Part shown: positions 16,079 to 35,800 of the stretch, piece after piece
Layout: every line of letters starts with the position of its first letter
Numbering within the stretch: position 1 is the first letter of the stretch
Source of the DNA: Acidobacteriota bacterium
GTDB taxonomy: Bacteria; Acidobacteriota; JAQAZP01
Direction: 5' to 3'
Assembly: GCA_032127265.1 (NCBI GenBank)
Contig: JAQAZP010000279.1
Coordinates: 1,272 to 65,271 of the forward strand
DNA length: 64,000 nucleotides
Program-made: the position numbers and the translations under genes
Notes under the pieces: model-generated
Databases searched by the model: none
What the model was told of the DNA's origin: nothing
What the model saw: only the letters and a program-made list of their open reading frames with translations

Positions 16079-16197
16079 TGCAATCCATCCCGCGTTCCCG
16101 AGTCCCCATGTGCTACTATGAAGGCGTGTTCCGCGCCCTTCAGGGCGGTGTGGTTTCTCCGTCCGGGCCGGGACCTCTTTCTCGTGCGGGTGCAGAT

Positions 16198-17832
16198 ATG
16201 AACCGTTTTCTTTGCCCGGTTGTTGTGCTGTTGGTCTTTGGCTTTCTTATGTTCACACCATTCGATAGCGCCTCGGCCAGCAACTGGCCATATCCGCGCC
16301 ATGACGCCACCAACCAGGCGGCGGCCACGATCCCCGCCAACTTCGGCAGTGCCCCGTCGCTCAGCTGGTCCTTCGAACTCCAGAACCCCGACGGCGGGGC
16401 CTACCCGGTGGCCGCCGACGTGGAACGTGACGGCCGGATGGAGCTGATCGTCGGCGATGCCACCGGCATCATTTACTGTCTGGACGCGGCGCTGGGCACC
16501 CTCCGCTGGAGCCGGCAGCTGCCGGCCTTTTTCAAGTGGGGCTCCCCGGTTCTGGTGGACCTGGACGGTGACGGCGACCGGGATATCGTGGTGGGCGCCC
16601 GGGACCTCATCGCCCTTGACGGCCCCACCGGCAACACGTTGTGGACGGCGCTTTCCGGGGTGGACATCCTCGGTATGTCGGCCGCCGACCTCACTGGCGA
16701 CGGCACCATTGAAATCTTCTGCACCGATTACCTCAACCCGCGCAACGGCTACCTGGTGCGCGGCGAGGACGGTGCGGTCCTCTGGAGCGTGGTGACCAGC
16801 GGTTCGAACTACAACATTCCCGCCTTCGCCGATCTCGACGGGGACGGAAAGCAGGAGATCCTGTTTACCCGGCACGACAGCGGAGCCACCGAGCGGGTGG
16901 TCTGTCTGCAGGCTTCGGACGGCCGGGAGTTGTGGAGCTATCAGTGCGGGCCTTCGGCCACCCAACAAACGTCGGCCCCGCCCCAGCTGGGCTACATCGC
17001 CGATTTCGGGTACCAGTCGGTGGTGGTGGCTGACTTCGACGGGGATGGACAACTGGAAGTTTCGGCCGGTACCGACCTCAACCACTACCTTTTCGAGGCC
17101 GACGGCACCCTGGTCACCAAGGTGCCCCAGGGTATCCTGGGCACCGGTTTCACCCGGCGGCGCGAATCAAACGGCGAATACACCTTCCGTGACCACCACT
17201 ACCAGATCTACGATCAGGCGGCAGGTGACCTGGACGGCAACGGCACCGTGGACATGGCCTACGGCCTGGTCTCCGACTACATTACCGACTACGACGTGGC
17301 CACCGGTAGCATCGAGGTGGAGTTCCTGGCCTACCGCAATGACGCCCGGGCCATTCGCGCCGACGGGTCCCTCCTCTGGAACTACCACTCCTCGGCCGAC
17401 GGGGCCGGGGTCGGGCGCTGTCGTGACCCGATCATTGCCGATCTCGACAGTTCGGGTGTCCTTGACGTGATTTACGGGTCAGAGGATGGCCACCTCTATG
17501 CCGTGGACGGGAAGTCCGGGCAGCTGCTCTGGCGCCTCCACATCGGCGATTTCGGGTTGAGCCGGGGCAAGATCCTGGTGGACACCGACGGCGACGGATT
17601 CGGCGAGCTGATCGTGGTGGCCGGCCGCCGGGTGATCAAATATGGCGGTCCGCTGGTGGGGGACGTGGACGACTCCGGCCGGGTGGACGGCGTGGACCTG
17701 CAGAGGCTCTCTTGGAGTTTTGGCAGCCAGTCGGACGAAGTGCGCTACCTGGAGAACGCCGACCTGGACCGCAACGGCACGGTTGACGGAGGGGATCTGG
17801 TTATCCTGGCCGGAAACTTCGGCAACCCTTGA
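16198..17832 (+). CDS. Secreted beta-propeller (FG-GAP/PQQ-like repeats) protein with C-terminal dockerin-like module
   Basis: Signal peptide MNRFLCPVVVLLVFGFLMF. Repeated DxDGDGxxE/D calcium-loop motifs (DLDGDGDRDIVVG, DLDGDGKQEILF, DFDGDGQLEV, DTDGDGFGELIVV). The C-terminal tandem segments DVDDSGRVDGVDLQRL and ADLDRNGTVDGGDLVILAGNFG resemble the duplicated dockerin calcium-binding repeats. Confidence 0.65.
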   Translation: MNRFLCPVVVLLVFGFLMFTPFDSASASNWPYPRHDATNQAAATIPANFGSAPSLSWSFELQNPDGGAYPVAADVERDGRMELIVGDATGIIYCLDAALGTLRWSRQLPAFFKWGSPVLVDLDGDGDRDIVVGARDLIALDGPTGNTLWTALSGVDILGMSAADLTGDGTIEIFCTDYLNPRNGYLVRGEDGAVLWSVVTSGSNYNIPAFADLDGDGKQEILFTRHDSGATERVVCLQASDGRELWSYQCGPSATQQTSAPPQLGYIADFGYQSVVVADFDGDGQLEVSAGTDLNHYLFEADGTLVTKVPQGILGTGFTRRRESNGEYTFRDHHYQIYDQAAGDLDGNGTVDMAYGLVSDYITDYDVATGSIEVEFLAYRNDARAIRADGSLLWNYHSSADGAGVGRCRDPIIADLDSSGVLDVIYGSEDGHLYAVDGKSGQLLWRLHIGDFGLSRGKILVDTDGDGFGELIVVAGRRVIKYGGPLVGDVDDSGRVDGVDLQRLSWSFGSQSDEVRYLENADLDRNGTVDGGDLVILAGNFGNP

Positions 17833-19282: not shown

Positions 19283-20866
19283 TCACCTCCGAGCAAAAAA
19301 AGCGGCATGGTTCGATGTGAATGTGGGCGGATCATGGTGGAGGATCCGCCGGATTTCATGGTGCTTGCGAAAAGTGCCGTCAAGAAAGCGCCGGACGTCC
19401 GGACGATTCCAGCCCCCGGGGTGGGTGAAATCGCGGTAGAGCGCCAGGTCGCCCGGGTAGAATTCTCCCACGGCAAGCCCTTCCGCCTCCGGACTGCCCA
19501 GCGGCAGGTTGAAGATGGCCAGGTTGAGAAAGGAGATGGCCTTCCGGTTCTGCAGGACGAAGCGCCAGGTTTCCTCCGCTTCGGCCCGGCTCTCGGCCGG
19601 CGTGCCGAAGAGCAGATAGAGGTAGACGGAGATGCCCGCTTGACGGAGGTTTTCCATTACCCTCGATACCTTGTGGAGAACAATCCCCTTGCCCAGGGCA
19701 TCCAGTACCTGCTGCGATCCCGACTCGAGCCCCAGCTTGAGCATCAGACAACCGGATTCCGCCAGCCGGGAGCAGAATTCGGGATCGTCCAGCGGATCGC
19801 CGATCCTGGCAAAGCCGTACCACGGGGCGCCCGGAGGGTGGTCGGCCAGCTGCCGGAGAATGACCGGCGGCACGGCGTTGTCCAGCAAGTGGATCAGCGA
19901 GGGATCGGTCTCTTTAACCAGGGTGCGCAGCTGCTCCCTCACCGTGCGGCGGGGCAGCGGCTCGTACCGCCGCTCTTCGGACCGTTCGGGGCAGAATGTG
20001 CAGCGGTTCCACCAGCAGCCGTCGGACGTGCTGAAGGGGAGGATGAAACCCGGGCTCAGGTATTCCTTGTCTTTGAACCCGAGGTAGTCGGGAGGCGTGT
20101 GCCCGTCTCTCACGTCGAGACCGGCCGCAGCCAGAACAGCCGCTTCGCCCTGCCCGTCCACCAGCTGATCAACCAGCCCCTCGAAGCGGTCGGTCCATCC
20201 GGGACGCCTCAGCCAGGAGGTGACCAGTCCTCCGCCGAGAATGATTCTCAGCCCGGAAACCTCCCGCTTCAGCAGGCCGATCATGGCAAAAGCGGAGAGG
20301 GCCTGGGATAGGTAGTTTATTGAAATTCCCACCACCGGCGGCTGATATTCATTCACCTGCGGCAGAAGCTGTTCGATGAAGTAGCCGTGGAAGGGATTGC
20401 GCTCCGGTTCCCTGGCCGCGGTAAGGAGATCGGCGGAGCGCACGGGTGAGAGCCTCGTATCCGAGTAATTGGCCAGCCCGGCACGGATCCCATCACTTTT
20501 GCCGGCCAGGGACAGCAGCCGTTCGAGATCGGACACGGCCCGGCCGTAGCGATCGTGGTTTTCGTATGTGCCGGGGGTTCTCAGGGCCGTGAGGTGCCGG
20601 TCGCGGTGTCCCAGGGCGCGACGGGACCAGGTGTCGTCCGCGGGTGCCGCTTTCTCCAGTAACCAGAGCAGTCCCTCCAGGTTGGCGTCGATCACCCGGC
20701 AGGGGGCGCCGTGGGCCCGCAGTGCTCCGGCCAGCCGGGCGATGCCGGCCGGCGGTTCGGAGGGTTTGGCCACTGGTGGATGAACCAGCAGGATCAGATG
20801 GTCAGTGGATGCGGAAATCTGTAAACTCCTTGTCCTGCGGCAGGTCCTCCAGTTCCACACTGTCAA
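19283..20866 (-). CDS. B12-binding-domain radical SAM protein
   Basis: N-terminal HLILLVHPP Rossmann-like start and YENHDRY-containing region typical of the cobalamin-binding domain. Radical SAM cluster motif CWWNRCTFC (CxxxCxxC). The start is uncertain: the TTG at 20866 lies inside the upstream acyP coding region. Confidence 0.75.
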   Translation of the reverse strand: MTVWNWRTCRRTRSLQISASTDHLILLVHPPVAKPSEPPAGIARLAGALRAHGAPCRVIDANLEGLLWLLEKAAPADDTWSRRALGHRDRHLTALRTPGTYENHDRYGRAVSDLERLLSLAGKSDGIRAGLANYSDTRLSPVRSADLLTAAREPERNPFHGYFIEQLLPQVNEYQPPVVGISINYLSQALSAFAMIGLLKREVSGLRIILGGGLVTSWLRRPGWTDRFEGLVDQLVDGQGEAAVLAAAGLDVRDGHTPPDYLGFKDKEYLSPGFILPFSTSDGCWWNRCTFCPERSEERRYEPLPRRTVREQLRTLVKETDPSLIHLLDNAVPPVILRQLADHPPGAPWYGFARIGDPLDDPEFCSRLAESGCLMLKLGLESGSQQVLDALGKGIVLHKVSRVMENLRQAGISVYLYLLFGTPAESRAEAEETWRFVLQNRKAISFLNLAIFNLPLGSPEAEGLAVGEFYPGDLALYRDFTHPGGWNRPDVRRFLDGTFRKHHEIRRILHHDPPTFTSNHAAFFARR

Positions 20867-21812: not shown

Positions 21813-22613
21813 CTACGGCCGCCGGCAGCGGAAATACCAGCCACAGGCGGCGAAGCGGGGCAGTTTGTCGGCCAGGGCCATGTCCAGTGATTCCAGCGGC
21901 CAGAGCAGCCCGGACCAGCGGCGGCAGAGCGAGAAGGGGAAGACCGGTGCGAGAACGCATGAACGTCCTTCCGGGGGCAGCACTTCCAGCCCGTTCTCTT
22001 CCAGCAGCCGCACGATGGAGCGAAAGGTGAACTGCTGAATGTGCCGCTCCCCTTTGGGATACGGCGCCGGTACGGGAAGCCGGTGGCGCAGCACCGGTAA
22101 GCGGCCCACGGCCAATCGCAGGCGACGCAGCAGCGCCGGCGCCAGCCGCAGCGGATTCCAACGGTAGGCCAGCAGTTCCCAGGGACCGTAGCCGTTGGGA
22201 ACCGTGATAACCGCAAGGCCTCCCGGTTCGGTGAGGGCGACGATCCTTTGCACCATTTCCGCCGGCTGCTCCAGGTGCTCCAGCACCTCGGAGCAGATCA
22301 CCACCGGAAAACGCACTTCCGGCTTCCAGCCCTCCATATCCCGGTTGACGAATTCAGCGTGCTCATAGGGGTTTCGTTCCCGGGCCGCCTCGGCCTTGGC
22401 CCGGTCGATCTCCACCCCGAGCACCGGGAACCCGGCCTCGGCCAGGGAGAGCGAGACATTGCCTGTGTTGCAGCCGATTTCCAGCACCCTCACCGTTTCG
22501 GGAGATCGTCTGTGCCGTCCTGCTTCAAGCAGGGCCGCCCCGACGATGAAATCCATCTTCTTCAGGTAGGTCAGGTTGCGGATCGTGCTGTGAGGGTAGC
22601 GGCGGCGGTCCAT
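21813..22613 (-). CDS. Class I SAM-dependent methyltransferase
   Basis: Motif I VLEIGCNTG and motif post-I/II (VVICSEVLEHL) are present. Length is 266 aa. Confidence 0.65.
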   Translation of the reverse strand: MDRRRYPHSTIRNLTYLKKMDFIVGAALLEAGRHRRSPETVRVLEIGCNTGNVSLSLAEAGFPVLGVEIDRAKAEAARERNPYEHAEFVNRDMEGWKPEVRFPVVICSEVLEHLEQPAEMVQRIVALTEPGGLAVITVPNGYGPWELLAYRWNPLRLAPALLRRLRLAVGRLPVLRHRLPVPAPYPKGERHIQQFTFRSIVRLLEENGLEVLPPEGRSCVLAPVFPFSLCRRWSGLLWPLESLDMALADKLPRFAACGWYFRCRRP

Positions 22614-23235: not shown

Positions 23236-23994
23236 TTACCTCTCGGCCAGGCCGGCCAGCACGCCCGCGCCAATACCGAAGAACATGAGAACGGCGATAC
23301 AGCCGCAGCAGAGCAGCAGCGGCAGCAGCACCGCGGCCAGCGCCCGGCCGGTGGTGGTTTCGTGCATCTCCCTCGAGCCGATCACCTCGGCCACGATGGC
23401 CCAGATGCCGCCGATCAGACCGCCGCAGAAAGGCAGCAGCTGGAAGAACGCGGTGGCGCCGGCGGCGTAGCAGACCACCCGCAAGGTGGCCTCGAAGCCG
23501 TTTCGCGCCCCGCCGGTGAGCAGCAGGCAAACGTGGAGGATTGCCGAGGAGATGAATGTGCCGATGAGCACGAAAACCGGCGAAAGAACGGCAATAAAGA
23601 GGATCAGGCCGGAGGAAAAGAGCAGTTCGTGCACGGCTTCGTTCTGGGACAGGATCCCCAGGCTCTGCAGCATGAAGTTCCAGAACAGGCCGCCGAGGAC
23701 ACCGACGGTGCCCAGCAGTACGGCAAAGAGGAGCGGCGATCCCAGATCGCCCGAGGTCTTCATCCGCCGGAAGGTGGCGGAGGGCTCGAAGAGCACACCG
23801 CGGATCATCTCGAACATCGCCGGAAAATCGAGGAAGGAGGAACGGCGTTCCCAGGCGCAATCCCCCCGGGGGGTTTCCATCTGCCGGGCCGGGCCGTGAC
23901 CGCTCCCGCCAAACCCGGGGACTTTTCCGCAGAAGGGGCACTGGCCCTGCCCGTCCATGGCATTGAATTCGTTTCCGCACTGATCACAAGTCAC
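23236..23994 (-). CDS. Membrane protein with N-terminal zinc-ribbon and Yip1-like multi-TM domain
   Basis: N-terminal CDQCGNEF...CPFCG zinc ribbon, followed by five hydrophobic helices. Confidence 0.5.
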   Translation of the reverse strand: MTCDQCGNEFNAMDGQGQCPFCGKVPGFGGSGHGPARQMETPRGDCAWERRSSFLDFPAMFEMIRGVLFEPSATFRRMKTSGDLGSPLLFAVLLGTVGVLGGLFWNFMLQSLGILSQNEAVHELLFSSGLILFIAVLSPVFVLIGTFISSAILHVCLLLTGGARNGFEATLRVVCYAAGATAFFQLLPFCGGLIGGIWAIVAEVIGSREMHETTTGRALAAVLLPLLLCCGCIAVLMFFGIGAGVLAGLAER

Positions 23995-24182
23995 TGTTCA
24001 GCCCTCCTGAGTCCCGATTCACCCGTGCCGCCCTATTTTACATAATTATGCTGCCGGGGGTAGATAGCGCGTATTCATGCTGGAATGTCCTCTGTTGATG
24101 AAACCCAAACCTGCACCTTAGCGTAAAATAAAGGACTTCCCCGCCGCTTGCAGGGGAAAATCCAGGGAGAGGACTCAATAAA

Positions 24183-25070
24183 ATGACTATCACCATCCGG
24201 GACCTGACCAAAACCTACAAGGGCGGCGTGACGGCCCTCGAGGGGGTCAACGTGGAGATCCCCGCCGGCATGTTCGGCCTGCTGGGCCCCAACGGGGCCG
24301 GCAAGAGCACGATGATAAAGATTCTGGCCACCCTGCTCGAGCCCACCTCGGGCGAAGTGAGTATCGACGGCCTCGACGTCTCGAAGGACCGGCGGAAGAT
24401 CCGTTCGCGGCTGGGCTACCTGCCCCAGGAATTCGGGGTCTACCCCAAGATGAAGGCCCGGGAGTTCCTCGACTTCGTAGCCCGCCTCAACGGCATGCCG
24501 AAGAACGGGCGGGACAAGCGGGTGGACGAGATGCTGGAGAAGGTGGGGCTGGCCGATGCCGCCCGGCGCAAGGTCAAGGCCCTCTCCGGCGGCATGCTGC
24601 GGCGGCTGGGCATCGCCCAGGCGCTGATCAGCGACCCGAAGCTGCTCATCGTCGACGAGCCAACCGTGGGCCTCGACCCTGAAGAGCGGATCCGCTTCCG
24701 CGGCCTGCTCCAGGACATCGGCAAGGAGATCGTGATCATCCTCTCCACCCACATCGTGGGCGACATCTCCAGCACCTGCGAAAACCTGGTGATCCTGGAC
24801 AAGGGCAAGGTACTCTACCGCGGCTCGCCGCCGGAACTCGCCGCCAAGGCCGAGGGAAAAACCTGGGAGACGGTGGCCGAGGAGAAGGACCTGCCGGAAA
24901 TCAAGCGGCACTTCAGCGTGATCAGCACCGCCCCGCGGGGCGACCGGCTGCACCTTCGTCTGGTGGGCGAGGGGTCGGCCAACGGCCTGGAGCTGAAACC
25001 GGTGAACCCGAACCTGGAAGACGCCTATATCAACTTCATGGGCGGGCTGGAGGAGGAGAAAAATGATTGA
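24183..25070 (+). CDS. ABC transporter ATP-binding protein (ABC-2 subfamily type)
   Basis: Walker A GPNGAGKST, ABC signature LSGGMLRRLG, Walker B LLIVDEP and H-loop STHIV are all present. An RBS precedes the ATG. Confidence 0.85.
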   Translation: MTITIRDLTKTYKGGVTALEGVNVEIPAGMFGLLGPNGAGKSTMIKILATLLEPTSGEVSIDGLDVSKDRRKIRSRLGYLPQEFGVYPKMKAREFLDFVARLNGMPKNGRDKRVDEMLEKVGLADAARRKVKALSGGMLRRLGIAQALISDPKLLIVDEPTVGLDPEERIRFRGLLQDIGKEIVIILSTHIVGDISSTCENLVILDKGKVLYRGSPPELAAKAEGKTWETVAEEKDLPEIKRHFSVISTAPRGDRLHLRLVGEGSANGLELKPVNPNLEDAYINFMGGLEEEKND

Positions 25071-28000
25071 CCTCACCGGAATCATGGGTCTGGCCAAATA
25101 CGAGAGCCGGCTCCTCCGCCGCACCTGGAAGTTCTGGATCCTGGCCGTCCTCGGCCTGCTCTTCCTGGTGATTATCAACCTCTATTACGCCTTCCTGCAC
25201 AATTTCTTCTCCGGCTACTCGGGCACCATCGGGCTGCTCTCCGCCGGGCTGGTGCTGCAGATCGTCTACTCCCAGTTCATCACCCTTTTCGCCGTGCTGC
25301 TGATCTGGTTCTGTTACGACTTCCTGAGCAAGGACAGCAAGTGCCGGGTGGACGGCGTGGTCCACTCGCGCCCGCTGAGCACCTTCGGCCTGGTCTGGGG
25401 CAAATTCCTCGGGGCGCTGATCCCCACCTTTGCCACGGCCCTGATCCTCACCCTGGTCTCGGTCTGTCTGCGGTTCATCCCGATCTTCCATCTCCCCTTC
25501 CGCCTCGGCCCCTACCTGATGCACCTCTTCGTCACCATCCTCCCCGGGCTGGCCTTCATCATCGCCCTGGTCTTTTTCCTCACCCTGGTGACCAGAAGCC
25601 GGGTGGCGGCGATCATCATCGCCCACGCCTACGTGATCATCGACCTGGTGGTCTTCATCAGCTTCGGCCGCTGGATCAAGGTCCAGTTCGTGCCGCTGGT
25701 GGACTTCAGCGGCTACTCCCTGACCACCTTCCACTCCGACCTGATCGGTTTCACCGGTTTCGACCTGCTGCTGCTCCAGCGGGGATATATCATCGCGCTC
25801 ACCCTGCTGCTGCTGGCCCTCACCGCCATGTTCTACCCGCGGCTCAAGCAGGCCGACCGGAACTCGCGGCCGGTGCTGGGCACCGCCGCCGCCGCGGCCA
25901 TACTGGCCCTCTGCTACATCGGCTGGGGCCTCTGGTCGGGGCACAACGACTACACCATGCGTGAAGCGGCCCGCGCCGAGCAGCAGGCGCTGCTGGACAA
26001 CCCGCTGACCCGGGTGACCCACTACGATATCGACCTCGACCTGACCAGCGGCAGCCGGCTCACCGCCACCGCCCGGATGACGGTGCGCAACGACGGCGCC
26101 GAGACCCAGGACCGGCTGGTCTTCGTGCTGAACAGCGGTCTCGACGTGGAATCGGTCACCGGCGCCGGCGGCGGCGCGCTGGACTTCGAACGGGGGGACA
26201 CCACCCTGGTGGCGAACATCCCGGCCCTCATGCCGGGCAACGAAACCGAGGTGGCCGTGGCCTACAACGGCGGCCTGGTGTTGAACACGATCTTCCTCAA
26301 CAGCAAGGCCGAAATCAACGAACTGAAGGGCCAGGCGCGCAACAACGTGGCCATTCTCGGCTACTTGCCGTCGTATGTCGGTTCGCGCTACTCGGTGCTG
26401 CTGCCCCAGGCGCGGTGGTATCCCTCACCCAACGTTGATACCGGCTACACCTACCCGGACAAGCGCCCGGACAACTTCGCCACCGCCGACCTGCGGATCA
26501 CCGTTCCCGGCGGACAGCAGGCAGTGACCCAGGGCGCCATGGTGAACCGGGATGATTCGGGCGGAAAAGCGATCTTCACCTACCGTTCCGACGTGCCGGT
26601 TCCCGGCCTTTCGGTGAACAGCGGCGAGTACCAGGTGATCAAGGGCGAAGTGGGGCCGATGCAGCTGGCCTTCTATTTCAGCGAAAATCACGCGGCCAAC
26701 ATCGAGTTCTTCAACGACGCGCGGGACAAGATCCACGAGGAGCTGGAGACCAAGCTCTCCGACATCCAGGAGCGCACCGGCCTTGAATACCCCTACCAGG
26801 CGCTGAGCCTGGTGGAGGTCCCCGGCGCCATGCGGGCCTACTCCGAGGGCTGGAACAGCCCCAACCCGCTGATCCAGCCCGGAGTGGTGATGCTCAAGGA
26901 GGCGGGCTTCTTCTCGGCCAACTTCGAGCGGGCCTTCAAAAAGCGCACCGAGCAGGCGGAGGAGGCCGAGGAGGAAGTGAACGCCGCGCAGATCAAGGTC
27001 GATATGCTCAAGCTCTTCTTCGACCTCGACGTGGTCAGCGGCAGCCTGCTGCAGAACGCCATGCCCAACTTCTGGGGCTTCCGCCTCGACCCCAGCGGCC
27101 CGCTCTACCCGGTGGCCGGCTACTGTCTCGACAACTACCTCAAGGAAACGGTCACCGGGACCCGGCCCTTTGCCTCGGTCTACATGATGACCAACTTCCA
27201 GCAGGTTCTGGGCCAGGGGATCCAGGCCCACTTCTCCCGGAATTCCAGCTGGCAGGAAGCGTTCTACGACGCCACGGTGAACATCGACAAGGTCTACAAG
27301 GCGATCAAGGCCACGACACTGGCCGAGATGAAGCCGGAGGACGACCCCGAACTGTTCTACAACGTGATGGGGCACAAGGGCCGCGGCTTCGTGGTCACCC
27401 TGCGCGAGTATCTCGGCGAGGAGGCCTTCCGCGCGCTGGTCAACGGCCTGGTGCAGCGCCACCAGTACGGCCAGTACACCATGGAGGACCTGCGCCTGCT
27501 GGCCGCCGAGGTCTCCGACCAGGACGTGGACTGGCTCTTCGAACAGTGGACCCACAGCACCGACCTGCCGGGCTACCGGATCAAGGAGAGCGAAGCCTAC
27601 CGCATCGCCACCGACGGCGAAGCGCCGCTCTACCAGGTGCGGGTAGTGCTGGCCAACGAGGAGAACGCGTCCGGTTTCGCCATCCTGACCTTCGAAACCC
27701 GCGGCGACAAGGTGGAGCGACGGGTGCGCCTCGATGGTTTGCAGACCGTGGAAGTGGCCCTGGTGGTCCCCGACGAGCCCGAACGGCTGGTGGTGGACCC
27801 CATCCTGGCCCGGAACAAGGAACCGCTGACCAAGGATTTCAAGCTGCCCGAAGAGCCGGTGGAAGCCGAACCCTTCGAGCGGGTGGCGGTGCTGGAGACC
27901 GGTGAAGCGGAGAACGAGCTCACGGTGATCGTCGATGATCTCGACCCGGGCTTCAGCCTGGCCGGCGAAACCGGCGGCTCACTGCTGCGCTGGCGGCCCT

Positions 28001-28464
28001 CAAAGGGCGACGACGAAGAGGACGAAGAGCCCCCGCTGGAGGAATATGTCAGGGGGATACCGGACCAGTGGGTCAACTGGACCCGCGACGAGGCCTACGG
28101 CCTGTACAACCACACGATGAAACTGAAAGGCGGCGGCGAGGGCGAATACTCGGCTCGCTGGGCCGCCAAGCTGCCCCGCCGGGGCCGCTACGAGGTCTTC
28201 ACCTACATCGGGGTAGTGGGCAAGGATCTCCGCGCCCGCGACGATGACGAGAAGCTGGGCAGCAACTACAGCTACACCATCGAGCACGAGGACGGCCCGG
28301 AAACGGCGACCCTCGACGCCACCGGCGCGGAGATCGGCTGGAACAGCCTCGGCACGTTCTATTTTTCGCCGGACAACGAGGCGGTGGTCACGCTCAGCGA
28401 CCAGGCCGACGGGGCCGTGATCGCCGACGCGGTGAAATTCACTTTTGCGGACGAGGTCGAATAA
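25063..28464 (+). CDS. ABC-2 type permease (N-terminal ~300 aa, six TM helices) fused to a ~830 aa extracytoplasmic domain
   Basis: The start overlaps the ATPase stop (ATGATTGA) with a GGAGGAGGAG RBS. Hydrophobic helices run to about residue 300, followed by a long hydrophilic region with a GAMRA segment but no HEXXH. The region is consistently coding. Resemblance to M1-peptidase-like folds is only a recollection. Confidence 0.7.
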   Translation: MIDLTGIMGLAKYESRLLRRTWKFWILAVLGLLFLVIINLYYAFLHNFFSGYSGTIGLLSAGLVLQIVYSQFITLFAVLLIWFCYDFLSKDSKCRVDGVVHSRPLSTFGLVWGKFLGALIPTFATALILTLVSVCLRFIPIFHLPFRLGPYLMHLFVTILPGLAFIIALVFFLTLVTRSRVAAIIIAHAYVIIDLVVFISFGRWIKVQFVPLVDFSGYSLTTFHSDLIGFTGFDLLLLQRGYIIALTLLLLALTAMFYPRLKQADRNSRPVLGTAAAAAILALCYIGWGLWSGHNDYTMREAARAEQQALLDNPLTRVTHYDIDLDLTSGSRLTATARMTVRNDGAETQDRLVFVLNSGLDVESVTGAGGGALDFERGDTTLVANIPALMPGNETEVAVAYNGGLVLNTIFLNSKAEINELKGQARNNVAILGYLPSYVGSRYSVLLPQARWYPSPNVDTGYTYPDKRPDNFATADLRITVPGGQQAVTQGAMVNRDDSGGKAIFTYRSDVPVPGLSVNSGEYQVIKGEVGPMQLAFYFSENHAANIEFFNDARDKIHEELETKLSDIQERTGLEYPYQALSLVEVPGAMRAYSEGWNSPNPLIQPGVVMLKEAGFFSANFERAFKKRTEQAEEAEEEVNAAQIKVDMLKLFFDLDVVSGSLLQNAMPNFWGFRLDPSGPLYPVAGYCLDNYLKETVTGTRPFASVYMMTNFQQVLGQGIQAHFSRNSSWQEAFYDATVNIDKVYKAIKATTLAEMKPEDDPELFYNVMGHKGRGFVVTLREYLGEEAFRALVNGLVQRHQYGQYTMEDLRLLAAEVSDQDVDWLFEQWTHSTDLPGYRIKESEAYRIATDGEAPLYQVRVVLANEENASGFAILTFETRGDKVERRVRLDGLQTVEVALVVPDEPERLVVDPILARNKEPLTKDFKLPEEPVEAEPFERVAVLETGEAENELTVIVDDLDPGFSLAGETGGSLLRWRPSKGDDEEDEEPPLEEYVRGIPDQWVNWTRDEAYGLYNHTMKLKGGGEGEYSARWAAKLPRRGRYEVFTYIGVVGKDLRARDDDEKLGSNYSYTIEHEDGPETATLDATGAEIGWNSLGTFYFSPDNEAVVTLSDQADGAVIADAVKFTFADEVE

Positions 28465-28617: not shown

Positions 28618-29703
28618 ATGATCACCAGACGTCCAGGCGTCGCCGCCTGCGCGGCGCTCTGTCTCGCCGCGCTCATCCTCCTCTCAGCCGCCGGCTGCAG
28701 CGAACCGGAATCGCAGGCCGGCCTGGAGGTGAAAATCCCGGTGCGGGTGGAGGAAGCCGGCCGGGCCGGCATCGAGGAACACCTCTCAACCACCGGCACG
28801 GTGCGGGCGATCCAGGAGGTCAAGCTCGACGCCCCGATGACCGGCTACCTGAACCTCGGCCGGCTGGGCGGCGACGGCCGGCGGCTGATCGAGGGCGACC
28901 AGGTGAAACAGGGACAGGTGATCGCCCTCTTGGACAATGAAGAGACACGGGTGAACAAGAAGAGCGGCATCGATGCCCGCCGTGCCGAACTGCAGAAGGC
29001 GGAGAGCGACTACCAGCGCTACCAGCGGCTCTACGACGAGGGGTTCGTCTCCGAACAGGAGATGAGGAACTACGAGAGCGCGCTGGCCACCTCGCGTTAC
29101 AACTACGAGAACAGCCTGATCGTCGAGGAGCAGACCCGGATCACCGCCCCGATCAGCGGCCGGCTGACCTGGCTGACCCGCGAGGTGGACGGGGCCAAGC
29201 TGACCGCCGGGACCGAGCTGGCCGAGGTGATGGATTTCTCCCGCGTGCTGGCCGACCTCGAACTGCCCGGCGGCGACATTGCCCGGGTGACGGAAGGGAT
29301 GAAGGTCAAGGTCAGCAATTACGCCTACCCCGACCAGGTCTTCGAGGGCACGGTGCGCTACATCAGCCCCACGATCCAGGCCCAGTCACGCACCTTCCGT
29401 GTGGAAGTGCTGCTGGAAAACCGCGAGGGGCTGGTGCGGCCGGGCATGTTCGTCAAGGCCGACATCGTCACCCGCGCCCGGGAGGACGCCCTGGTCGTCC
29501 CGCGGCACGCGGTGGTGGTGCGCAACAACCGGCCGTCGGTCTTCGTCGTCTCGCGGCAGAAGGCCGAGATGCGCGCGGTGGTCACCGGTCTCGAGGATGA
29601 AGAGCGGGTGGAGATCCTCTCCGGCATCGAGGCCGGAGAACGCGTGGTGGTCCAGGGCTACGAGACCCTGAAAGACAAGACGCCGGTGAAGGTCAACTCC
29701 TGA
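28618..29703 (+). CDS. Efflux RND transporter periplasmic adaptor subunit (membrane fusion protein), lipoprotein
   Basis: Lipobox LSAAGCS, GGAAGGAG RBS 9 nt upstream of the ATG at 28618. Membrane-fusion-protein coiled-coil and beta-barrel regions are present (QYQRLYDEGFVSEQE; RITAPISGRL). Confidence 0.8.
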   Translation: MITRRPGVAACAALCLAALILLSAAGCSEPESQAGLEVKIPVRVEEAGRAGIEEHLSTTGTVRAIQEVKLDAPMTGYLNLGRLGGDGRRLIEGDQVKQGQVIALLDNEETRVNKKSGIDARRAELQKAESDYQRYQRLYDEGFVSEQEMRNYESALATSRYNYENSLIVEEQTRITAPISGRLTWLTREVDGAKLTAGTELAEVMDFSRVLADLELPGGDIARVTEGMKVKVSNYAYPDQVFEGTVRYISPTIQAQSRTFRVEVLLENREGLVRPGMFVKADIVTRAREDALVVPRHAVVVRNNRPSVFVVSRQKAEMRAVVTGLEDEERVEILSGIEAGERVVVQGYETLKDKTPVKVNS

Positions 29704-32700
29704 TGAAAGCCATAGCCAGCCTCGCGGTCCGTTTTCCGGTCACCGTGGTGATGATCTTCACCGGGGTGCTGCTCCTCGGCTACATTTCACTGGACAAACT
29801 GGGCATCGACCTGCTGCCCGACATCTCCAGCCCCAAGGTGGTGGTGGTGCTCGAGTCGGGAAACCGCCCGCCTCGGGAAATGGAAGACGTTTTCGGCGAG
29901 CAGCTGGAGTCCCAGTTGAGCACGATCAGCGGCGTCTCCCGCGTCTCCTCGGTCTCCCGGGTGGGCAGCATCATGGTCACCGTTGAGTTCTACTGGGACA
30001 GCGACATGGACTTCGCCCTGCTCGAGGTGCAGAAGAACATCGGCTACCTCCAGGCGGACCGCGAAGTGGACAATCTGAGTATCCGCCGTTTCGACCCCCA
30101 GGCCGCGCCGGTGCTGCGCGTGGGGATGTTCCCCGCCGCCGGGGATGACAGCGGCGCCGACCTCGACGAAATGCGGCGGCTGGCCGAGGACTATGTCCGG
30201 CCGGCCCTGGAACGGCTGCGCGGCGTGGCCGCGGTGCGCATCTCCGGCGGCCGCGAGCGGGAAGTGATCGTCGAGACCGACGAGTTCCTGCTGGACGCCT
30301 TCGGCATCACCGTGGACGACGTGGCCTCCCGGGTCAGGGAGGCCAATATCGACACCTCCGGCGGCACGCTGGAGGAAGAGGGCAAGATCTATGTCATCAA
30401 GGGGGTGGGCCGGTTCACCGACCTGGACCAGCTCCGGGCCCTCACCGTGGCCTACCTCGACCGCAGCAAGGCCCCCTCGGACCTCGCCTCCCAGGACACG
30501 GCCTTCGACCCGCTGAAGGTGCCGGTGCCGCTCTCCCGGGTGGCCCGGGTCTATTACGGGGACAAGGAGGTGCGCAACCTGGTGCGGATCAACGGCACCG
30601 AGGGTGTGGGCCTCTCGGTGCACAAGGAGGGCGGCAGCAACACGGTGACGGTGAGTGACGACGTGCGCCGCACCCTGGACCAGCTGTCCCGCTCGCTTCC
30701 CGGTGTGCGCTTCGAGGTGGTCCGGGACCAGGCCCGCTTCATCAGCGGTTCGATCCGCGAGGTGGAGGAGCAGGCACTGATCGGCGCGCTGCTGGCCGTC
30801 GTGATCCTCTTCCTCTTCCTGCGCAGTTTCGGCGCCACCCTGGTCATCGCGCTGGCCATCCCCCTCTCCATCGTCGCCACCTTCGTGCTGATGTACTTCG
30901 CCGGGTTGAGCCTCAACATCATGACCCTCGGCGGGCTGGCCCTGGGTGTGGGCCTCTTGGTGGACAACGCCATCGTGGTGATCGAGAACATCTACCGCCA
31001 CCTTCAGGCGGGCAAAGGAAAAATAGAGGCTGCCATCGACGGCGCCTCGGAAGTGGGCGGCGCGATCTTCGCCTCCACCCTGACCACCTGCGTGGTCTTC
31101 CTGCCCGTGGTCTTCATCGGCGACATCACCGGCGAGCTGCTCAAGGAACAGGCCTTCACCGTGAGCATCTCGCTGCTCTGTTCGCTGGTGGTAGCCATGG
31201 TGCTGATCCCGATGCTCGCCTCGCGGATGCTGAAAGGCAAGCGGGCCGAGGCGGCCGGCGCCGCTTCCGAGCACCTGGTGCGCAGCAGGGTGTATAACGG
31301 CCTGCTGGACTGGGCGCTGAACCACAAACTGATCGTGGTGGTCATCACCCTGATCCTCGGCCTCTTTTCAGCCGAGGCGTTCCGGCGCTGCGGCACCGAA
31401 TTCCTGCCCCGGGCCGACCAGGGCGAGTTCGGTATCCGGCTGGCGCTCCCCGAAGGGACACCGGTGCAGCGGACCGCCGCGGTCACCGGCTTTGTCGAGG
31501 ACCTGCTGCTGGAAAATTTCGCCGCGGAGATCACCGCGGTCTACAGCGACATCGGCAAGCGGCGGCTGGAGGACGAGCTGCTCACCGAGGAAGTCTGGGA
31601 CGAGAACACGGCGCTGGTCCTGGTCTCGCTCAAGCCGTTTTCCGAGCGCCGGCTGCACACCTCGGCGATCATCGGCGCCATCGACCCGGTGCTGCGCAAC
31701 GTCCCGGGCCTGGAGGCGACCTACAACCTCGGCGAGACCGCCCTGCAGCAGACCATCGGTTCCGGCGACGCGCAGGTGAGCATCGAGGTGCGGGGCCCGG
31801 ACGTGGACCGGCTGCGGGAGATCAGCGACGAGGTGGCGGCCCAGCTGGAGGAGATGAACGCCGGGGGCAAGGGGATCTACAACGTGCGCACCAGCTTCCA
31901 GGGCGGGCGCGAGGAACTGGCGATCCACATCGACCGCATGACCGCGGCCAGCCTGGGCCTCGACGTGACCACCATCACCCGGCTGGTCCGGCGCAAGCTC
32001 TACGGCGAGGAGATCTCCATCTTCCGCGCCGAAGACGAGGACCGCGACATCTCCATCCGCCACCCGATGATGAATCTCGAACAGCTGCTGGGCCTGGAGA
32101 TCGAGAACCCCACCGGCACCCGGATCCTGCTCAAGGACATCGCCGACGTGCGCACCGAATCGGGCCCGCGGGAAATCCTGCGCCGCGGCCAGTCGCGGGT
32201 GGCCCTGGTCCAGGCCGACCTGGCCGAAGGCGTGCCGCTGAGCGAGGTCAGCGGCGAGATCGGCTCGCGGCTCGACGGGGTGAATATACCGCAGGGGTAC
32301 CGCTTTTTGGTGGGCGGCGAAGAGCTGCGGCGCCAGGAGTCGTTCGAGAAGCTGCGCTTCGCCATGCTGCTGGCCCTGCTGCTGGTCTACATGGTGATGG
32401 CCTCGCAGTTCGAATCGCTGCTCCATCCCTTCACCATCATGCTCACCATCCCCATGGCCGGAGTGGGGGTGGCGGCGCTCTTCTTCATCACCGGCCTGCC
32501 GCTGTCGGTGATGGCCTTTATCGGCATCATCATTCTCGCCGGCATCGCGGTCAATGACGGGATCATCCTCATCGATTTCGTGGGCCTCCTCCGCCGCCGG
32601 GGGATGAAGCGCAAGGAGGCGCTGCTCGCCGCCGGCCAGGCCCGGCTGCGGCCGATCCTGATGACCAGCTCCACCACCATCCTCGCCCTGCTGCCGCTGT

Positions 32701-32858
32701 CCCTGGGCTTCGGCGAGGGGGCCGAGCTGCGGGCGCCACTGGCCTACGCCATCATCGGCGGGCTGTTCAGCTCCACCATCCTCACCCTGGTGGTGCTGCC
32801 GGTGGCCTATGACCTGATCGACCGCCTGCGGCCCGCCGGCAGGGGGAAGGACGCGTGA
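29703..32858 (+). CDS. Efflux RND transporter permease subunit (AcrB/HAE family)
   Basis: 1051 aa with the 12-TM RND pattern. N-terminus MKAIASLAVRFPVTVVMIFTGVLLLG, and conserved TM4/TM10 regions (ALGVGLLVDNAIVVIENI; IAGIAVNDGIILIDF). The start overlaps the adaptor-protein stop (ATGA). Confidence 0.85.
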   Translation: MKAIASLAVRFPVTVVMIFTGVLLLGYISLDKLGIDLLPDISSPKVVVVLESGNRPPREMEDVFGEQLESQLSTISGVSRVSSVSRVGSIMVTVEFYWDSDMDFALLEVQKNIGYLQADREVDNLSIRRFDPQAAPVLRVGMFPAAGDDSGADLDEMRRLAEDYVRPALERLRGVAAVRISGGREREVIVETDEFLLDAFGITVDDVASRVREANIDTSGGTLEEEGKIYVIKGVGRFTDLDQLRALTVAYLDRSKAPSDLASQDTAFDPLKVPVPLSRVARVYYGDKEVRNLVRINGTEGVGLSVHKEGGSNTVTVSDDVRRTLDQLSRSLPGVRFEVVRDQARFISGSIREVEEQALIGALLAVVILFLFLRSFGATLVIALAIPLSIVATFVLMYFAGLSLNIMTLGGLALGVGLLVDNAIVVIENIYRHLQAGKGKIEAAIDGASEVGGAIFASTLTTCVVFLPVVFIGDITGELLKEQAFTVSISLLCSLVVAMVLIPMLASRMLKGKRAEAAGAASEHLVRSRVYNGLLDWALNHKLIVVVITLILGLFSAEAFRRCGTEFLPRADQGEFGIRLALPEGTPVQRTAAVTGFVEDLLLENFAAEITAVYSDIGKRRLEDELLTEEVWDENTALVLVSLKPFSERRLHTSAIIGAIDPVLRNVPGLEATYNLGETALQQTIGSGDAQVSIEVRGPDVDRLREISDEVAAQLEEMNAGGKGIYNVRTSFQGGREELAIHIDRMTAASLGLDVTTITRLVRRKLYGEEISIFRAEDEDRDISIRHPMMNLEQLLGLEIENPTGTRILLKDIADVRTESGPREILRRGQSRVALVQADLAEGVPLSEVSGEIGSRLDGVNIPQGYRFLVGGEELRRQESFEKLRFAMLLALLLVYMVMASQFESLLHPFTIMLTIPMAGVGVAALFFITGLPLSVMAFIGIIILAGIAVNDGIILIDFVGLLRRRGMKRKEALLAAGQARLRPILMTSSTTILALLPLSLGFGEGAELRAPLAYAIIGGLFSSTILTLVVLPVAYDLIDRLRPAGRGKDA

Positions 32859-35800
32859 ACCTCCCGACCCTCGCCATCAAGCGCCCGGTGACCACGGTGA
32901 TGTTCTTCATCGCCCTGGGGGTGCTGGGCGTGATCAGCTACACCACCCTGCCGGTGCAACTGATGCCCAACTACATCTACCCCAAGATGTTCGTCTTCGC
33001 CGGCTACCCCGGCGCTTCGCCGGAGAAGGTCGAGGAGGACCTGATCGAACGGCTGGAGGCCGAGATCTCGACCCTCGAGGACATCGAGGAGATCGAGTCC
33101 CAGTCAAACCAGGACTACGGAGTGATCACCGTCTCCTACAAGCTGGGCACCGACCTCAACTACGCCTACCTCAAACTGGAACAGAAGGCCAACGGCCTGA
33201 TCGGCCTGTTGCCCGAAACGGCGACGCTGCGTGTCCAGCGCTTCGACACCTCGGCCTTCGCCAACTTCGTCATGCAGCTTGACGTGGCCGGGCCGGGGGG
33301 ACTGTCCTACATTCGCCGGCTGGCCGAGGAGAAGATCCAGCCCAAACTGGAGTCGGTGAACGGCGTGGTCAGCGTTCAGGTCTTCGGCGGGCAACAGCAG
33401 GCGGTGCAGGTAACCCTGGACGAAGACCGCCTGCGCTCCTACGGCATCATGCCCACCCAGGTACTGGCGACACTCAACGGCTTTCACCAGCGGCGGGAGT
33501 TCGTCGGCGAGGTTATGGTTGCCGGCCGCCGCCAGTTCGCCATGGTTGAAGGCCGCTTCACCTCACTGCAGGAGATCCGCGACCTGCCGCTGAAGACGGG
33601 TGACGGCGTGATCTTCCTCCGCGACGTGGCCCGGGTGGAAGAGGCCCCGAACCGCCAGACCCAGGTCTCGCGGGTGGACGGACACCCCACGGTGAGCATC
33701 CAGATCCAGAAGGACGAGCAGTCGAACCTGATCAAGGTGGCCCAGAGGCTGCGTCGGGAGATCGCGGCGATCAACAAGGAGAATGCCGCCACCGGGGTCC
33801 GCATCACCACCGCTTTCGACAGCGCGGAGTATATCGAGGAGGACATCAACCGGGTAAAGATGCTGGCACTGAGCGGCGGCCTGCTGGCCCTCTTGGTACT
33901 GCTGATCTTCCTCAAGCGGCCCGGCCCGGTGGTCGTGGTTTCCCTGGCCATACCGGTGTCGTTGCTGCTGACCTTCAATCTGATGGCCGCCGCCGGCCTG
34001 GCCATCGACGTGCTGACCCTCATCGGGCTGACCCTCTCCATTGGCCTCCTGGTGGATAACGCCATCGTGGTGCTGGAGAGCATCACCCGGCAGCGCGAAC
34101 GGGGGTTGCCGCGGATGGAGGCGGCGGTCACCGGCAGCTCCGAGGTGTTCAAGGCGATCCTCGTCGGCACGGCCACCACGGTGGTGGTATTCGCTCCGCT
34201 GATCTGGGTCAAAACCGAGTTCACCGAGCTGTACAACGATTTCGCCCTGGCGATCATCTTTCCCCTGCTCATCTCGCTGCTGGTGGCGGTGACCCTGATC
34301 CCCATGCTGGCCAGCCGGCTGGGACGGCGGAAGGACGATGACCCCGGGAAGAGGGGCTTCCGGCCCGCCGAGGACCGCAAGCGGCCTCAGCGCATCCTCC
34401 AGCTCTACACCCTGCTGCTCAAACAGTGCTCCAGACACCAGATCCTGACCACAGTTCTGTTCTTCGCCGTGCTGATGCTCACCGTGCTGATCACCACGCC
34501 ACTCATCCTCAACCTCTTTGGTACCGGACAGCCGCCGGACAGCCGGATCGAGATGAAGCTGGAAATGCCCGAGGGGGCCGACCTGGAGTCCACCGAAGCG
34601 GTCACCGCCCAGGTGGAGGCGATGACCCTCGACCTGCCCGACCGCAAGGTGACCCGTTCCACCATCCGCGAGGGTGAGGCCTTCATCACCGTGGAACTGC
34701 TGCCAAAAGACGAGCGGATGTCCGACGACTCGCTCGGCGCGATCCGCAACAAGCTCAAGGACCGTACCGAGGAGATCAGCGGGGCAACAGTACTTTTCGA
34801 CCGTTCGCAGTTCCAGAGCGCCCGCGGCAGCGACGACGAAGGGGGCGCGGCAGCGCTGGGCCTCGCCAGCGCCGTGGAGACGGTGGTGCTCACCGGCGAG
34901 GAGATGCCCCGGTTGGTGGACCTGGCCAACGAAGTAAAATACCGGCTGGAGCAGATCGAAGGCGTGGATGACCGCACCATCCGCATGGACGTGGACGATG
35001 TCACCCCCGAGGTGCGGTTGGAGGCCCGCTACCAGGATCTGGCCAGTTGGGGTCTCTCGATGCAGCAGGTAATGGGCCTGCTCTGGATGGCCCGCCGGGA
35101 GGGGGACCAGCTGACCTACCCCTACCGCGACAGGCAGGACAACGAAATGAAAATCCAGGTCCGCCTGGGCGAGGAAGGTGATTGGAGCTTCCGCGACCTG
35201 CGGGACCTCTCGATCCCCACGCCCAACGGCGAGTTCGTCCGGGTCACCGAGCTGATGGATTTCAAGCAGGAAGCCGGGCTGCCCAGCCTGTTGCGGCACC
35301 AGGGCACCCACCGCATCCGTGTCTACTACGGCTACGAGCTCGCGGTGCTCACCACCCAGACACGACTGGACGAACTGCGGGAATCAGTGGACGAGCTGCT
35401 GCTCTCCATCCCCCTGCCCCGAGGCTACACCCTCACCGCCGAACGGGAGGACGAGGAGCAGAACGTCTGGAAGTTCATGCTCTACGTGGCACTGATCCTG
35501 GTCTACATGATCCTCGCCGCCTCCTTCGAGTCGTTCACCCACCCGCTGCTGATCCTCTTCACCATCCCCATGGCGATGATCGGGGTGCTGATCCTGCTGG
35601 CACTCACCGGTGTTGGACTGCCCCCCTTGGTCTACCTCGCCATGCTGGTGCTGCTGGGTATCGTTGTAAACAACGGTATCCTGCTCATCGACTACGCCAG
35701 ACACCTGGTGCGCAACCGGGGCTTCCGCCCCGAACGGGCGATCATCGCTTCGGGCCGGGCCCGCTTCCGCCCGGTGATCATGACCGCCGCCACCACCATC

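Follow-up and report, generated by a model that had tools for sequence, protein, structure and literature searches.

An ABC-2-type permease fused to a predicted pseudo-aminopeptidase within a conserved operon of ABC and RND transporter genes

Architecture of the fused permease and distribution of its family

The window analysed here is a 64,000-nucleotide stretch of an Acidobacteriota bacterium (GenBank assembly GCA_032127265.1, contig JAQAZP010000279.1, positions 1,272 to 65,271 of the forward strand), in which a gene at 25063..28464 (+) codes for an ATP-binding cassette (ABC)-2-type permease joined to a predicted pseudo-M1 aminopeptidase and a Golvesin_C domain. The gene, referred to below as that of the fused permease, was defined from its open reading frame (ORF) and translation, full-length relatives and an AlphaFold 2 model; it is a single uninterrupted ORF of 1133 codons whose ATG overlaps by 8 nt the stop codon of a gene encoding a 295-residue ABC ATPase. 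It belongs to an operon that brings together ABC and resistance-nodulation-division (RND) transporters, the two principal classes of bacterial exporter by energy source, including a covalent fusion of an RND permease to an ABC ATPase, and we regard this system as more interesting than the fused permease alone.

The N-terminal ~300 residues of the protein are hydrophobic and the remaining ~830 are hydrophilic. The initial annotation, made from the sequence without database searches, had described the first ~300 residues as a typical six-helix ABC-2 permease; the hydrophobic character of this part was upheld, but the helix count was not, as hydropathy analysis identified seven segments (residues 23–47, 57–86, 110–140, 150–176, 180–205, 235–258 and 270–292) and the AlphaFold 2 model agreed. 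Modelled helices at 4–20, 22–49, 61–84, 107–136, 148–177, 180–199 and 233–257, with a helix (207–213) and a hairpin (224–229) in the interval between transmembrane (TM) helices 5 and 6, gave a predicted topology matching the ABC-2 pattern, in which an amphipathic helix at the N-terminus precedes six TM helices and short external elements separate TM5 from TM6. This type V-like membrane domain (residues 1–262; 25063..25848, +) was delimited from hydropathy, the model, Pfam matches in relatives and profile alignment with hhalign. It is followed by a positively charged cytoplasmic loop, a seventh TM helix and a stalk helix (residues 263–312; 25849..25998, +), assigned from the hydrophobic segment 270–292 and from the model, in which TM7 and stalk form one continuous long helix (269–309). 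Positive charges were concentrated at the N-terminus, in loops 87–108 and 177–180 and in the YPRLKQADRNSRP loop preceding TM7. This charge pattern, together with the seven hydrophobic segments, therefore predicts a topology with the N-terminus inside and the C-terminal ~830 residues outside, the seventh TM helix being expected to make the large C-terminal part extracytoplasmic. Pfam models of ABC-2 membrane domains were matched in diverse relatives, PF12698 (ABC2_membrane_3) in 14 of 42 and PF12679 (ABC2_membrane_2) in 11 of 42.

When 1.84 billion representative proteins, clustered at 50% identity, were searched exhaustively with a profile, 1046 clusters were matched at E≤1e-30, and a scan of species-representative genomes located 381 loci encoding the family; an earlier view of a rare protein, based on 10 relatives from a word-index search, was overturned by these results. 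More than 150 full-length relatives of ~1110–1190 residues each scored >625 bits, and with conservation extending over their whole length, the proposal that the ~830-residue hydrophilic remainder is clearly coding was borne out. Full-length relatives share 21–37% identity with the fused permease, and the window is 91% identical to the metagenome-assembled genome MFD03804.bin.1.167. The family is spread over at least five phyla, with carriers in Acidobacteriota (Thermoanaerobaculia, Vicinamibacterales and Holophagales), Gammaproteobacteria (Pseudomonadales, Ca. Azotimanducaceae and Ca. Multivorans), Desulfobacterota, KSB1, Hydrogenedentota and Bacteroidota, and its members are currently named 'hypothetical protein' (NCBI) or NosY-like permease.

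The AlphaFold 2 model of the fused permease was built on an alignment of 65 diverse relatives, an earlier run on 10 sequences having been discarded at a predicted local distance difference test score (pLDDT) of 56. It reached a pLDDT of 86.6 and a predicted template modelling score of 0.83, with only residues 970–995 below a pLDDT of 50, and showed after TM7 an all-beta part (317–540), an alpha/beta part (545–831), a seven-stranded sandwich (838–925) and a further beta domain (954–1128). Foldseek comparison with the PDB returned top matches that were all M1 aminopeptidases, namely IRAP (5mj6, E 4e-20), ERAP1, ERAP2, puromycin-sensitive aminopeptidase and Neisseria APN, with alignments of probability 1.00, E 4e-20 to 1e-16, ~640 columns and 12–14% identity. 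These ~640 columns fit M1 domains I–III and leave no room for the helical domain IV. As modelled, the outer module thus adopts the M1 aminopeptidase fold of domains I–III.

Sequence profiles pointed in the same direction. Pfam recognized two pieces only in the outer module, Golvesin_C and a PF01433 (Peptidase_M1) fragment on residues 720–829 (32.0 bits, cut-off 27.7) that covers only model positions 116–218, the last half of that model. A relationship to M1 peptidases had been suspected at the outset, and both this fragment and the Foldseek matches to IRAP, ERAP1 and APN confirmed it. PF01433 was matched in only 3 of the 42 diverse relatives, and the M1 nature of the family is therefore invisible to routine annotation. 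When the family profile was compared with PDB sequences, the M1 matches were the two-domain proteases 6a8z/6iff, which aligned with domain I and with the last part of domain II, and alanine aminopeptidase 7v9n. The M1 domain-I-like beta domain occupies residues 313–540 (25999..26682, +), where the 6a8z/6iff profile match covers residues 312–404 and 464–525 in agreement with the all-beta model and Foldseek. The domain-II-like (thermolysin-like) module, which appears to have no catalytic residues, spans residues 541–835 (26683..27567, +) as judged from PF01433, PDB M1 sequence matches at residues 750–839, Foldseek and column statistics, and the domain-III-like beta-sandwich (residues 836–928; 27568..27846, +) was recognized from the seven modelled strands at 838–925 and the length of the Foldseek alignments.

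The former active site and the C-terminal domain

Fusions of ABC-2 permeases with M1 modules are already known, though unstudied. In TCDB family 3.A.1.145 (M. xanthus Q1D520) an ABC-2 domain with 13 transmembrane segments (TMS) is fused to a zinc aminopeptidase, its function being uncharacterised (PMC3924187). Our literature search on permease/M1 fusions or on the function of bacterial Golvesin_C domains found nothing beyond this listing. A sister family of the fused permease (P0010/P0236 type, ~1200 residues), which combines two ABC-2 membrane domains with an M1 domain whose zinc motif is intact, fits this TCDB family. The fused permease is collinear with the sister proteins from their second membrane domain through the extra TM helix to the M1 part; the ABC-2 membrane domain, the extra TM helix and M1 domains I–III held in common were aligned by hhalign at a probability of 99.9 over ~800 columns (99.7–99.9 for the membrane domain against the second sister membrane domain), and sister genes also have an ABC ATPase immediately upstream. 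In contrast to the two membrane domains and 13 TMS of the sister proteins, the fused permease has one membrane domain and seven TM helices. The sister family keeps an intact HEXXH motif, as HE[ASTV]AHQWW, in 119 of 119 sequences, whereas the fused permease lacks catalytic residues, and the sister family has neither the Golvesin_C domain nor the RND neighbours, whereas the fused permease has a carbohydrate-binding module (CBM)-like domain and an RND operon. The half-size membrane domain, the apparently dead peptidase, the added CBM-like domain and the ABC+RND operon are new in comparison to TCDB 3.A.1.145, and the simplest history would start from an active peptidase tethered to a permease, which later lost catalysis and acquired the CBM-like domain. 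At the sister loci L082/L083 (5399–11642) genes for a Beta_helix protein and an ABC ATPase precede the sister gene and RND genes are absent, an order that recalls NosD-NosF-NosY.

The initial annotation had seen no HEXXH zinc site, and none was found in the fused permease or in any of the homologues examined for its retention (0 of 158 family members, whole sequences); the gene does not encode an ordinary aminopeptidase N whose intact active site had been missed. Motif positions were taken from a profile-profile alignment of the family with the sister family (probability 99.9, 799 columns). The HEXXH equivalent is Q664-N665-A666-M667-P668 (27052..27066, +; family consensus x-G-A-A-R), placed by hhalign to P0010 and to the sister profile with a posterior of 0.2–0.3. 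The third zinc ligand Glu corresponds to Y687 (27121..27123, +; posterior 0.6–0.7), in a family column of I/L/T/V/A, and the catalytic Tyr of the Y-x-K-G segment to G770 (27370..27372, +; posterior 0.6–0.9), in a column of A/T/S/L/G. Single-sequence Viterbi hhalign instead placed the HEXXH register at V646–K650, which is also without ligands. The Q664–P668 register was preferred because the FW/FF pair after it matches the WW of the sister family, because its helix is followed in the model, five residues on, by a short strand and because Y687 follows at the canonical distance of 18 residues; a helix and, after five residues, a short strand is the M1 enzyme pattern. Neither the His-Glu-His-Glu set nor a metal ligand was present in any alignment register.

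The GAMRA segment (residues 588–592; 26824..26838, +), in which a likeness to the GAMEN motif of M1 enzymes had been noticed, did not survive family column counts and alignment to the sister family. Its columns hold G in 17, A in 18, L in 125 and R in 133 of 141 sequences, giving a consensus of x-x-L-R-x, and a GAMEN remnant was ruled out on account of the unconserved G and A columns. From the spacing to the conserved YPY, compared with human APN numbering, GAMRA presumably lies ~4 residues upstream of the GAMEN site; the segment at the expected spacing (592–596) has the family consensus G/V-Y-G-G-G and not GAMEN. Overall, the fused permease shares with M1 aminopeptidases (APN/PepN, ERAP1/2, IRAP, 6a8z/6iff) the fold of domains I–III and, in domain I and the final part of domain II, a similarity of sequence profiles, but it differs from them by the absence of HEXXH-X18-E, GAMEN, the catalytic Tyr and the helical domain IV, by an insertion of ~50 residues near the former active site (two helices, 621–654, ahead of the former zinc helix) and by its anchoring through an ABC permease. 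Judged from these alignments, the family as a whole has lost every zinc ligand, together with the GAMEN motif and the catalytic Tyr, and the M1 module is catalytically dead. The proposal of an inactive peptidase-like or substrate-binding scaffold made in the initial annotation is in keeping with the M1 fold, the family-wide loss of catalytic elements and the conservation of the module across phyla, and this full-length conservation across phyla and 1046 clusters indicates selection on the dead module. The family would thereby offer a clear bacterial case of a peptidase that became a pseudo-enzyme while still fused to a transporter, and the intact sister family allows direct comparison.

Conservation within the fused permease was highest in residues 541–620 (domain IIa) and in the IVVDDLDxGF strand (954–967), and residues 621–700, the former active-site helices, were in the lowest group. 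In true M1 enzymes the 541–620 segment corresponds to the sheet bearing the GAMEN strand. Near-invariant residues include H543, Y576, E585, R591, W597, E613 (141/141) and D656, and beyond domain II N865, N918, D958/D959/D961, W1003, Y1015, W1093 and D1122. The near-invariant polar residues argue for a retained binding function and give a slight probability to a catalytic site of non-canonical type. In the latter case the M1-like module would be a cryptic hydrolase using other conserved residues, for which H543, Y576, E585, R591, E613 and D656 in domain II would be at hand. We consider this very unlikely, as the His-Glu-His-Glu set is absent in every register, H543 is the sole conserved His of the M1-like module, the helices of the former active site show poor conservation as well as insertions, and the Pfam M1 model is reached by so few members (3 of 42).

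The C-terminal ~250 residues had been described as acidic with beta-rich repeats. Internal repeats were ruled out by a BLASTP self-comparison, which showed the diagonal only, and the region consists of the M1 domain-III-like sandwich (residues ~838–925) and the Golvesin_C domain; an acidic stretch is present and forms a predicted disordered loop at residues ~968–1002. The Golvesin_C / CBM6-35-36-like beta-sandwich (residues 954–1128; 27922..28446, +) includes the invariant IVVDDLDxGF strand and was identified by PF25275 (Golvesin_C) on residues 1005–1127 (69.7 bits, cut-off 31.6) and by the family profile, which matched residues 1021–1122 to the module at the C-terminal end of Paenibacillus xanthan lyase 6f2p. 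Pfam detected Golvesin_C in 39 of the 42 diverse relatives, with D958, D959, W1093 and D1122 as invariant residues of this part. InterPro puts the golvesin C-terminal domain among CBM6/35/36-like modules (label quoted in PMC9166713). The acidic loop DDEEDEEPPLEE (residues 968–1002; 27964..28068, +) lies inside this domain and, by pLDDT and gap statistics, is a lineage-specific insertion that is predicted to be disordered (pLDDT <50 at 970–995). In 54% of relatives the alignment has a gap here, no other segment of the fused permease is less conserved, and the DNA contains a repeat of two 9-bp units; we attach no functional weight to the loop.

The operon and the proposed role of the fused permease

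Gene order in the operon is fixed across loci as ABC ATPase, fused permease, adaptor, RND permease, RND permease fused to an ABC ATPase, and small ABC-2 permease, with stop and start codons overlapping through the operon. The partner ABC ATPase (295 residues, DrrA/GldA-like; 24183..25070, +) matches PF00005 at 118.7 bits with canonical Walker A/B, signature and H-loop motifs, and is below the cut-off of the NCBIfam drrA and GldA models. Downstream of the fused permease gene, after a gap of 150 nt in the window, lies the gene for an RND-type periplasmic adaptor (membrane fusion protein; 28618..29703, +; TIGR01730 217.6 bits, above cut-off), which has an ATG with a GGAAGGAG ribosome-binding site and encodes a probable lipoprotein with a lipobox-like SAAGC. 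It is followed by RND permease 1 (RND1, 1051 residues; 29703..32858, +; PF00873 772 bits), by RND permease 2 with its ABC ATPase domain (RND2, 1587 residues; 32855..37618, +; PF00873 at residues 5–1028, PF00005 at residues 1314–1456) and by the small ABC-2 permease (243 residues, six TM helices by hydropathy; 37629..38360, +; PF12679 30.8 bits). Homology of the small permease to the membrane domain of the fused permease was marginal (probability 11%) and was rejected, and it has no bearing on hetero- versus homodimers. Consensus scans gave a weak promoter-like site upstream of the ATPase gene (24018..24046, +; 9 of 12 matches, pattern match only) and a terminator-like hairpin closing the operon (38375..38421, +; pattern match only), the latter having a perfect 20-bp stem, AT-rich in a 65% GC genome, and then a T-poor tail. 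No outer-membrane factor was found within the window.

Conservation of this neighbourhood was surveyed by phmmer searches of the window proteins against all stop-to-stop ORFs of 81 related loci. An ATPase gene lay directly upstream of the homologue of the fused permease in 63 of 73 loci with enough flank which, with the overlapping genes of the window, identifies it as a dedicated partner, and the adaptor lay directly downstream in 63 of 74. The adaptor, RND1 and the RND–ATPase fusion were found together in 51 of the 64 loci whose downstream flank reached 9.8 kb or more, and the small permease accompanied them in 50 of the 51; the 13 others comprised three frameshifted assemblies with the pieces present, one locus cut by its end and nine genuine exceptions. 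In orthologous loci the adaptor gene overlaps the stop codon of the fused permease gene. No universal extra gene was found at the operon ends, and an outer-membrane factor was found only in Fulvivirga and one KSB1 locus. Fulvivirga ligni CP089979.1 (L084, 6–15942) is a cultured operon carrier with a complete genome, in which a gene for a TolC-like outer membrane efflux protein (OEP; 4249–5727 of L084) stands between the fused permease homologue, aligned by hhalign at a probability of 100 over 1061 columns, and the adaptor. In some Gammaproteobacteria (L021, L061, L079) two tandem copies of the fused permease gene follow one ATPase gene, and solo copies with neither ATPase nor RND genes occur at L002, L064, L069 and L071, that of L002 adjoining a DUF4350 / MoxR / DUF58 / SpoIIM-like / RDD cluster. 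Some of the exceptions are second copies beside a full operon in the same genome, L069 and L078 being located on one chromosome.

Parts of this system resemble known transporters. As in systems of the MdtABC type there are two RND paralogues, both scoring best on MdtB/MdtC-type models, and the adaptor recognized by TIGR01730 and the TolC-like OEP of the Fulvivirga operon recall tripartite and ABC-adaptor systems (MacAB-TolC, YbhGFSR); the operon differs from all of these by its RND–ATPase fusion, two ABC-2 permeases and free ATPase. Like GldAFG it is of the ABC-2 kind and has a large accessory part outside the cytoplasm, the partner ATPase scoring 212.8 bits on the GldA model, but this score is far under the cut-off of 402.6 and the outer module has the M1 fold and is not GldG-like. 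A GldF/GldG relationship was ruled out by the absence of NCBIfam GldF/GldG matches (a weak pepN match only) and by the M1 fold from Foldseek.

We propose, with a probability of roughly 0.5, that the fused permease acts within a composite ABC+RND exporter as a periplasmic module for binding or scaffolding that has no catalytic activity. The architectural half of this reading is near-certain and the functional half is weak. The exporter would be made up of the products of the whole conserved operon, with a TolC-like channel encoded in-operon in Cytophagales. The partner ATPase would power the fused permease as its ABC-2 membrane subunit, six TM helices forming the core and the seventh crossing the membrane. 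The outer module would bind rather than cleave, a role suggested because the best-conserved parts are the domain II sheet region and the putative glycan-binding sandwich, with, as candidate ligands, a peptide-like chain for the conserved sheet region, a glycan for the CBM-like domain or the two together. It could serve as a periplasmic receiver, hand-off platform or anchor/scaffold of the exporter, such that the ABC modules would move or present the substrate at the inner membrane and the conduit of adaptor, RND permeases and outer-membrane channel would then expel it.

Several observations weigh against this proposal. The nine genuine exceptions are solo copies, or an ATPase with one or two copies of the fused permease gene, without RND genes, and 10 of 73 loci have no adjacent ATPase gene; proteins of this type can therefore exist outside the operon. 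The link of the outer module to the adaptor and RND permeases is one of genomic neighbourhood. The initial annotation had suggested that this domain could be a periplasm-spanning tether that joins the ABC module to the RND/adaptor module; the present data, in which the tight linkage is between genes (adaptor next to the fused permease gene in 63 of 74 loci, full RND set in 51 of 64), speak neither for nor against such a role. The membrane domain of the fused permease has no Pfam match of its own, and a membrane-domain profile of 28 family sequences found no match among PDB sequences. The register of the former active site is uncertain, given its low posterior and the alternative at V646–K650, and invariant polar residues are kept in domain II (H543, E585, R591, E613 and D656). 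Glycan binding by the Golvesin_C domain is putative and follows from a family-level label.

Loci without RND genes can also be interpreted as a sign that the operon encodes two independent pumps on one transcript, in which the ATPase and the fused permease would form a self-contained ABC-2 exporter, with the outer domain as its private cap or substrate filter, and the adaptor and RND permeases would form a separate, co-regulated efflux pump. Solo or ATPase-plus-permease copies without RND genes (L002, L021, L027, L064, L067, L069, L071), a sister family (TC 3.A.1.145 type) that has the ATPase but no RND neighbours, and the 150-nt gap ahead of the adaptor gene in the window are all consistent with such an arrangement. 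It is nevertheless unlikely in our view, both for the separate pumps and for the private cap or filter, since genes keep one fixed order in Acidobacteriota, Gammaproteobacteria, Desulfobacterota, Bacteroidota and further groups, since in orthologous loci the stop codon of the fused permease gene lies within an overlap with the adaptor gene, and since a second ABC ATPase domain forms a single covalent chain with an RND permease, which argues that the ABC and RND parts cooperate.

This RND–ATPase fusion is, as read from the encoded proteins, the only demonstrable physical connection between the ABC and RND parts, and it is distinct from the outer domain of the fused permease. RND2 comprises a full RND permease (residues 5–1028), three TM hairpins and a complete ABC ATPase domain (residues ~1300–1587), the first beta-strand of which (LDIAVRELKKVYG) sits between hairpins 1 and 2. 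The same fusion occurs at L001 (17687–22453), in Fulvivirga ligni (10001–14704 of L084) and at ~50 other loci, and the best 120 database matches to it all combine PF00873 with PF00005 in ~1550–1595 residues. These matches include proteins of cultured Fulvivirga, Marivirga, Xanthovirga and Chryseotalea. The NCBI name of the fusion is 'efflux RND transporter permease subunit' only, and a literature search for an RND-ABC fusion or for the operon found no paper. When 59 sequences of RND1 were aligned with 53 of RND2, the TM10 Asp was invariant in RND1 (VNDG, 59/59; residue 952 in the window, nt ~32556–32558), whereas the ATPase-fused RND2 had Pro (49/53) or Asn (4/53) and never an acid (0/53) at this site, the window sequence being GIVVNNGIL at residues ~940–948. 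Asp-Asn in TM4 is common to both, as are an Asn at the position of K940 and an Arg at the position of R971 in AcrB numbering. The absence of the TM10 Asp from RND2 may represent loss of part of the proton relay.

A more ambitious interpretation is that the operon encodes a single hard-wired ABC-RND supercomplex, a type of envelope exporter not yet described. An RND heterotrimer would be covalently tied through the fused ATPase domain to the ABC-2 subunits, ATP hydrolysis and proton flow would be coupled, and the pseudo-aminopeptidase/CBM module of the fused permease would act as periplasmic substrate receiver or anchor. The missing TM10 Asp of RND2, compared with its invariance in RND1, would fit ATP replacing or gating the proton relay. 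We put this forward as a tentative possibility that is open to considerable doubt. Should the operon encode one machine, physical coupling of ATP-driven and proton-driven transport would be demonstrated, and the long-discussed two-step efflux, from the inner membrane and then from the periplasm to the outside, would become testable. Cultured carriers such as Fulvivirga, Marivirga and Chryseotalea make genetics and biochemistry feasible.

A comparison with NosDFY raises the alternative of a mechanotransducer, in which, by analogy with NosDFY and FtsEX, ATP hydrolysis would move the periplasmic pseudo-peptidase/CBM module and nothing would transit the permease. The work performed could, for example, be gripping of glycan or cell wall, or assembly or gating of the RND-outer-membrane conduit. 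Both systems combine a permease of the PF12679/COG ABC-2 type with a large periplasmic module that is not itself for transport; the resemblance to NosDFY is one of functional analogy. JGI files the family under a NosY-type COG ('multi-copper enzyme maturation') and some members match PF12679, the sister family shows the NosD-NosF-NosY-like order of Beta_helix protein and ATPase, and the outer module is very large with a CBM-like end, all of which would suit this interpretation. The periplasmic module of the fused permease, however, is fused and not a separate beta-helix protein, and no nos genes (NosD, NosL, NosZ) were found near the fused permease gene. We therefore hold a mechanotransducer to be rather improbable, both in its general form and for the particular kinds of work named, and retain as the preferred reading a composite ABC+RND exporter with a non-catalytic module for binding or scaffolding.

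Other genes in the window

Upstream of the operon, a gene for a Yip1-domain membrane protein (23236–23994, −) is transcribed divergently from it, a placement conserved in no loci other than those of the closest relatives (L001, L003, L004). Genes for a B12-binding radical SAM enzyme (19283–20866, −) and a SAM methyltransferase (21813–22613, −) are also located upstream on the opposite strand and are not conserved beside the operon elsewhere. Further upstream, a 584-residue FG-GAP/beta-propeller protein (16078–17832, +) carries a C-terminal dockerin type I domain, a domain that is unusual outside the cellulosome-forming Firmicutes.

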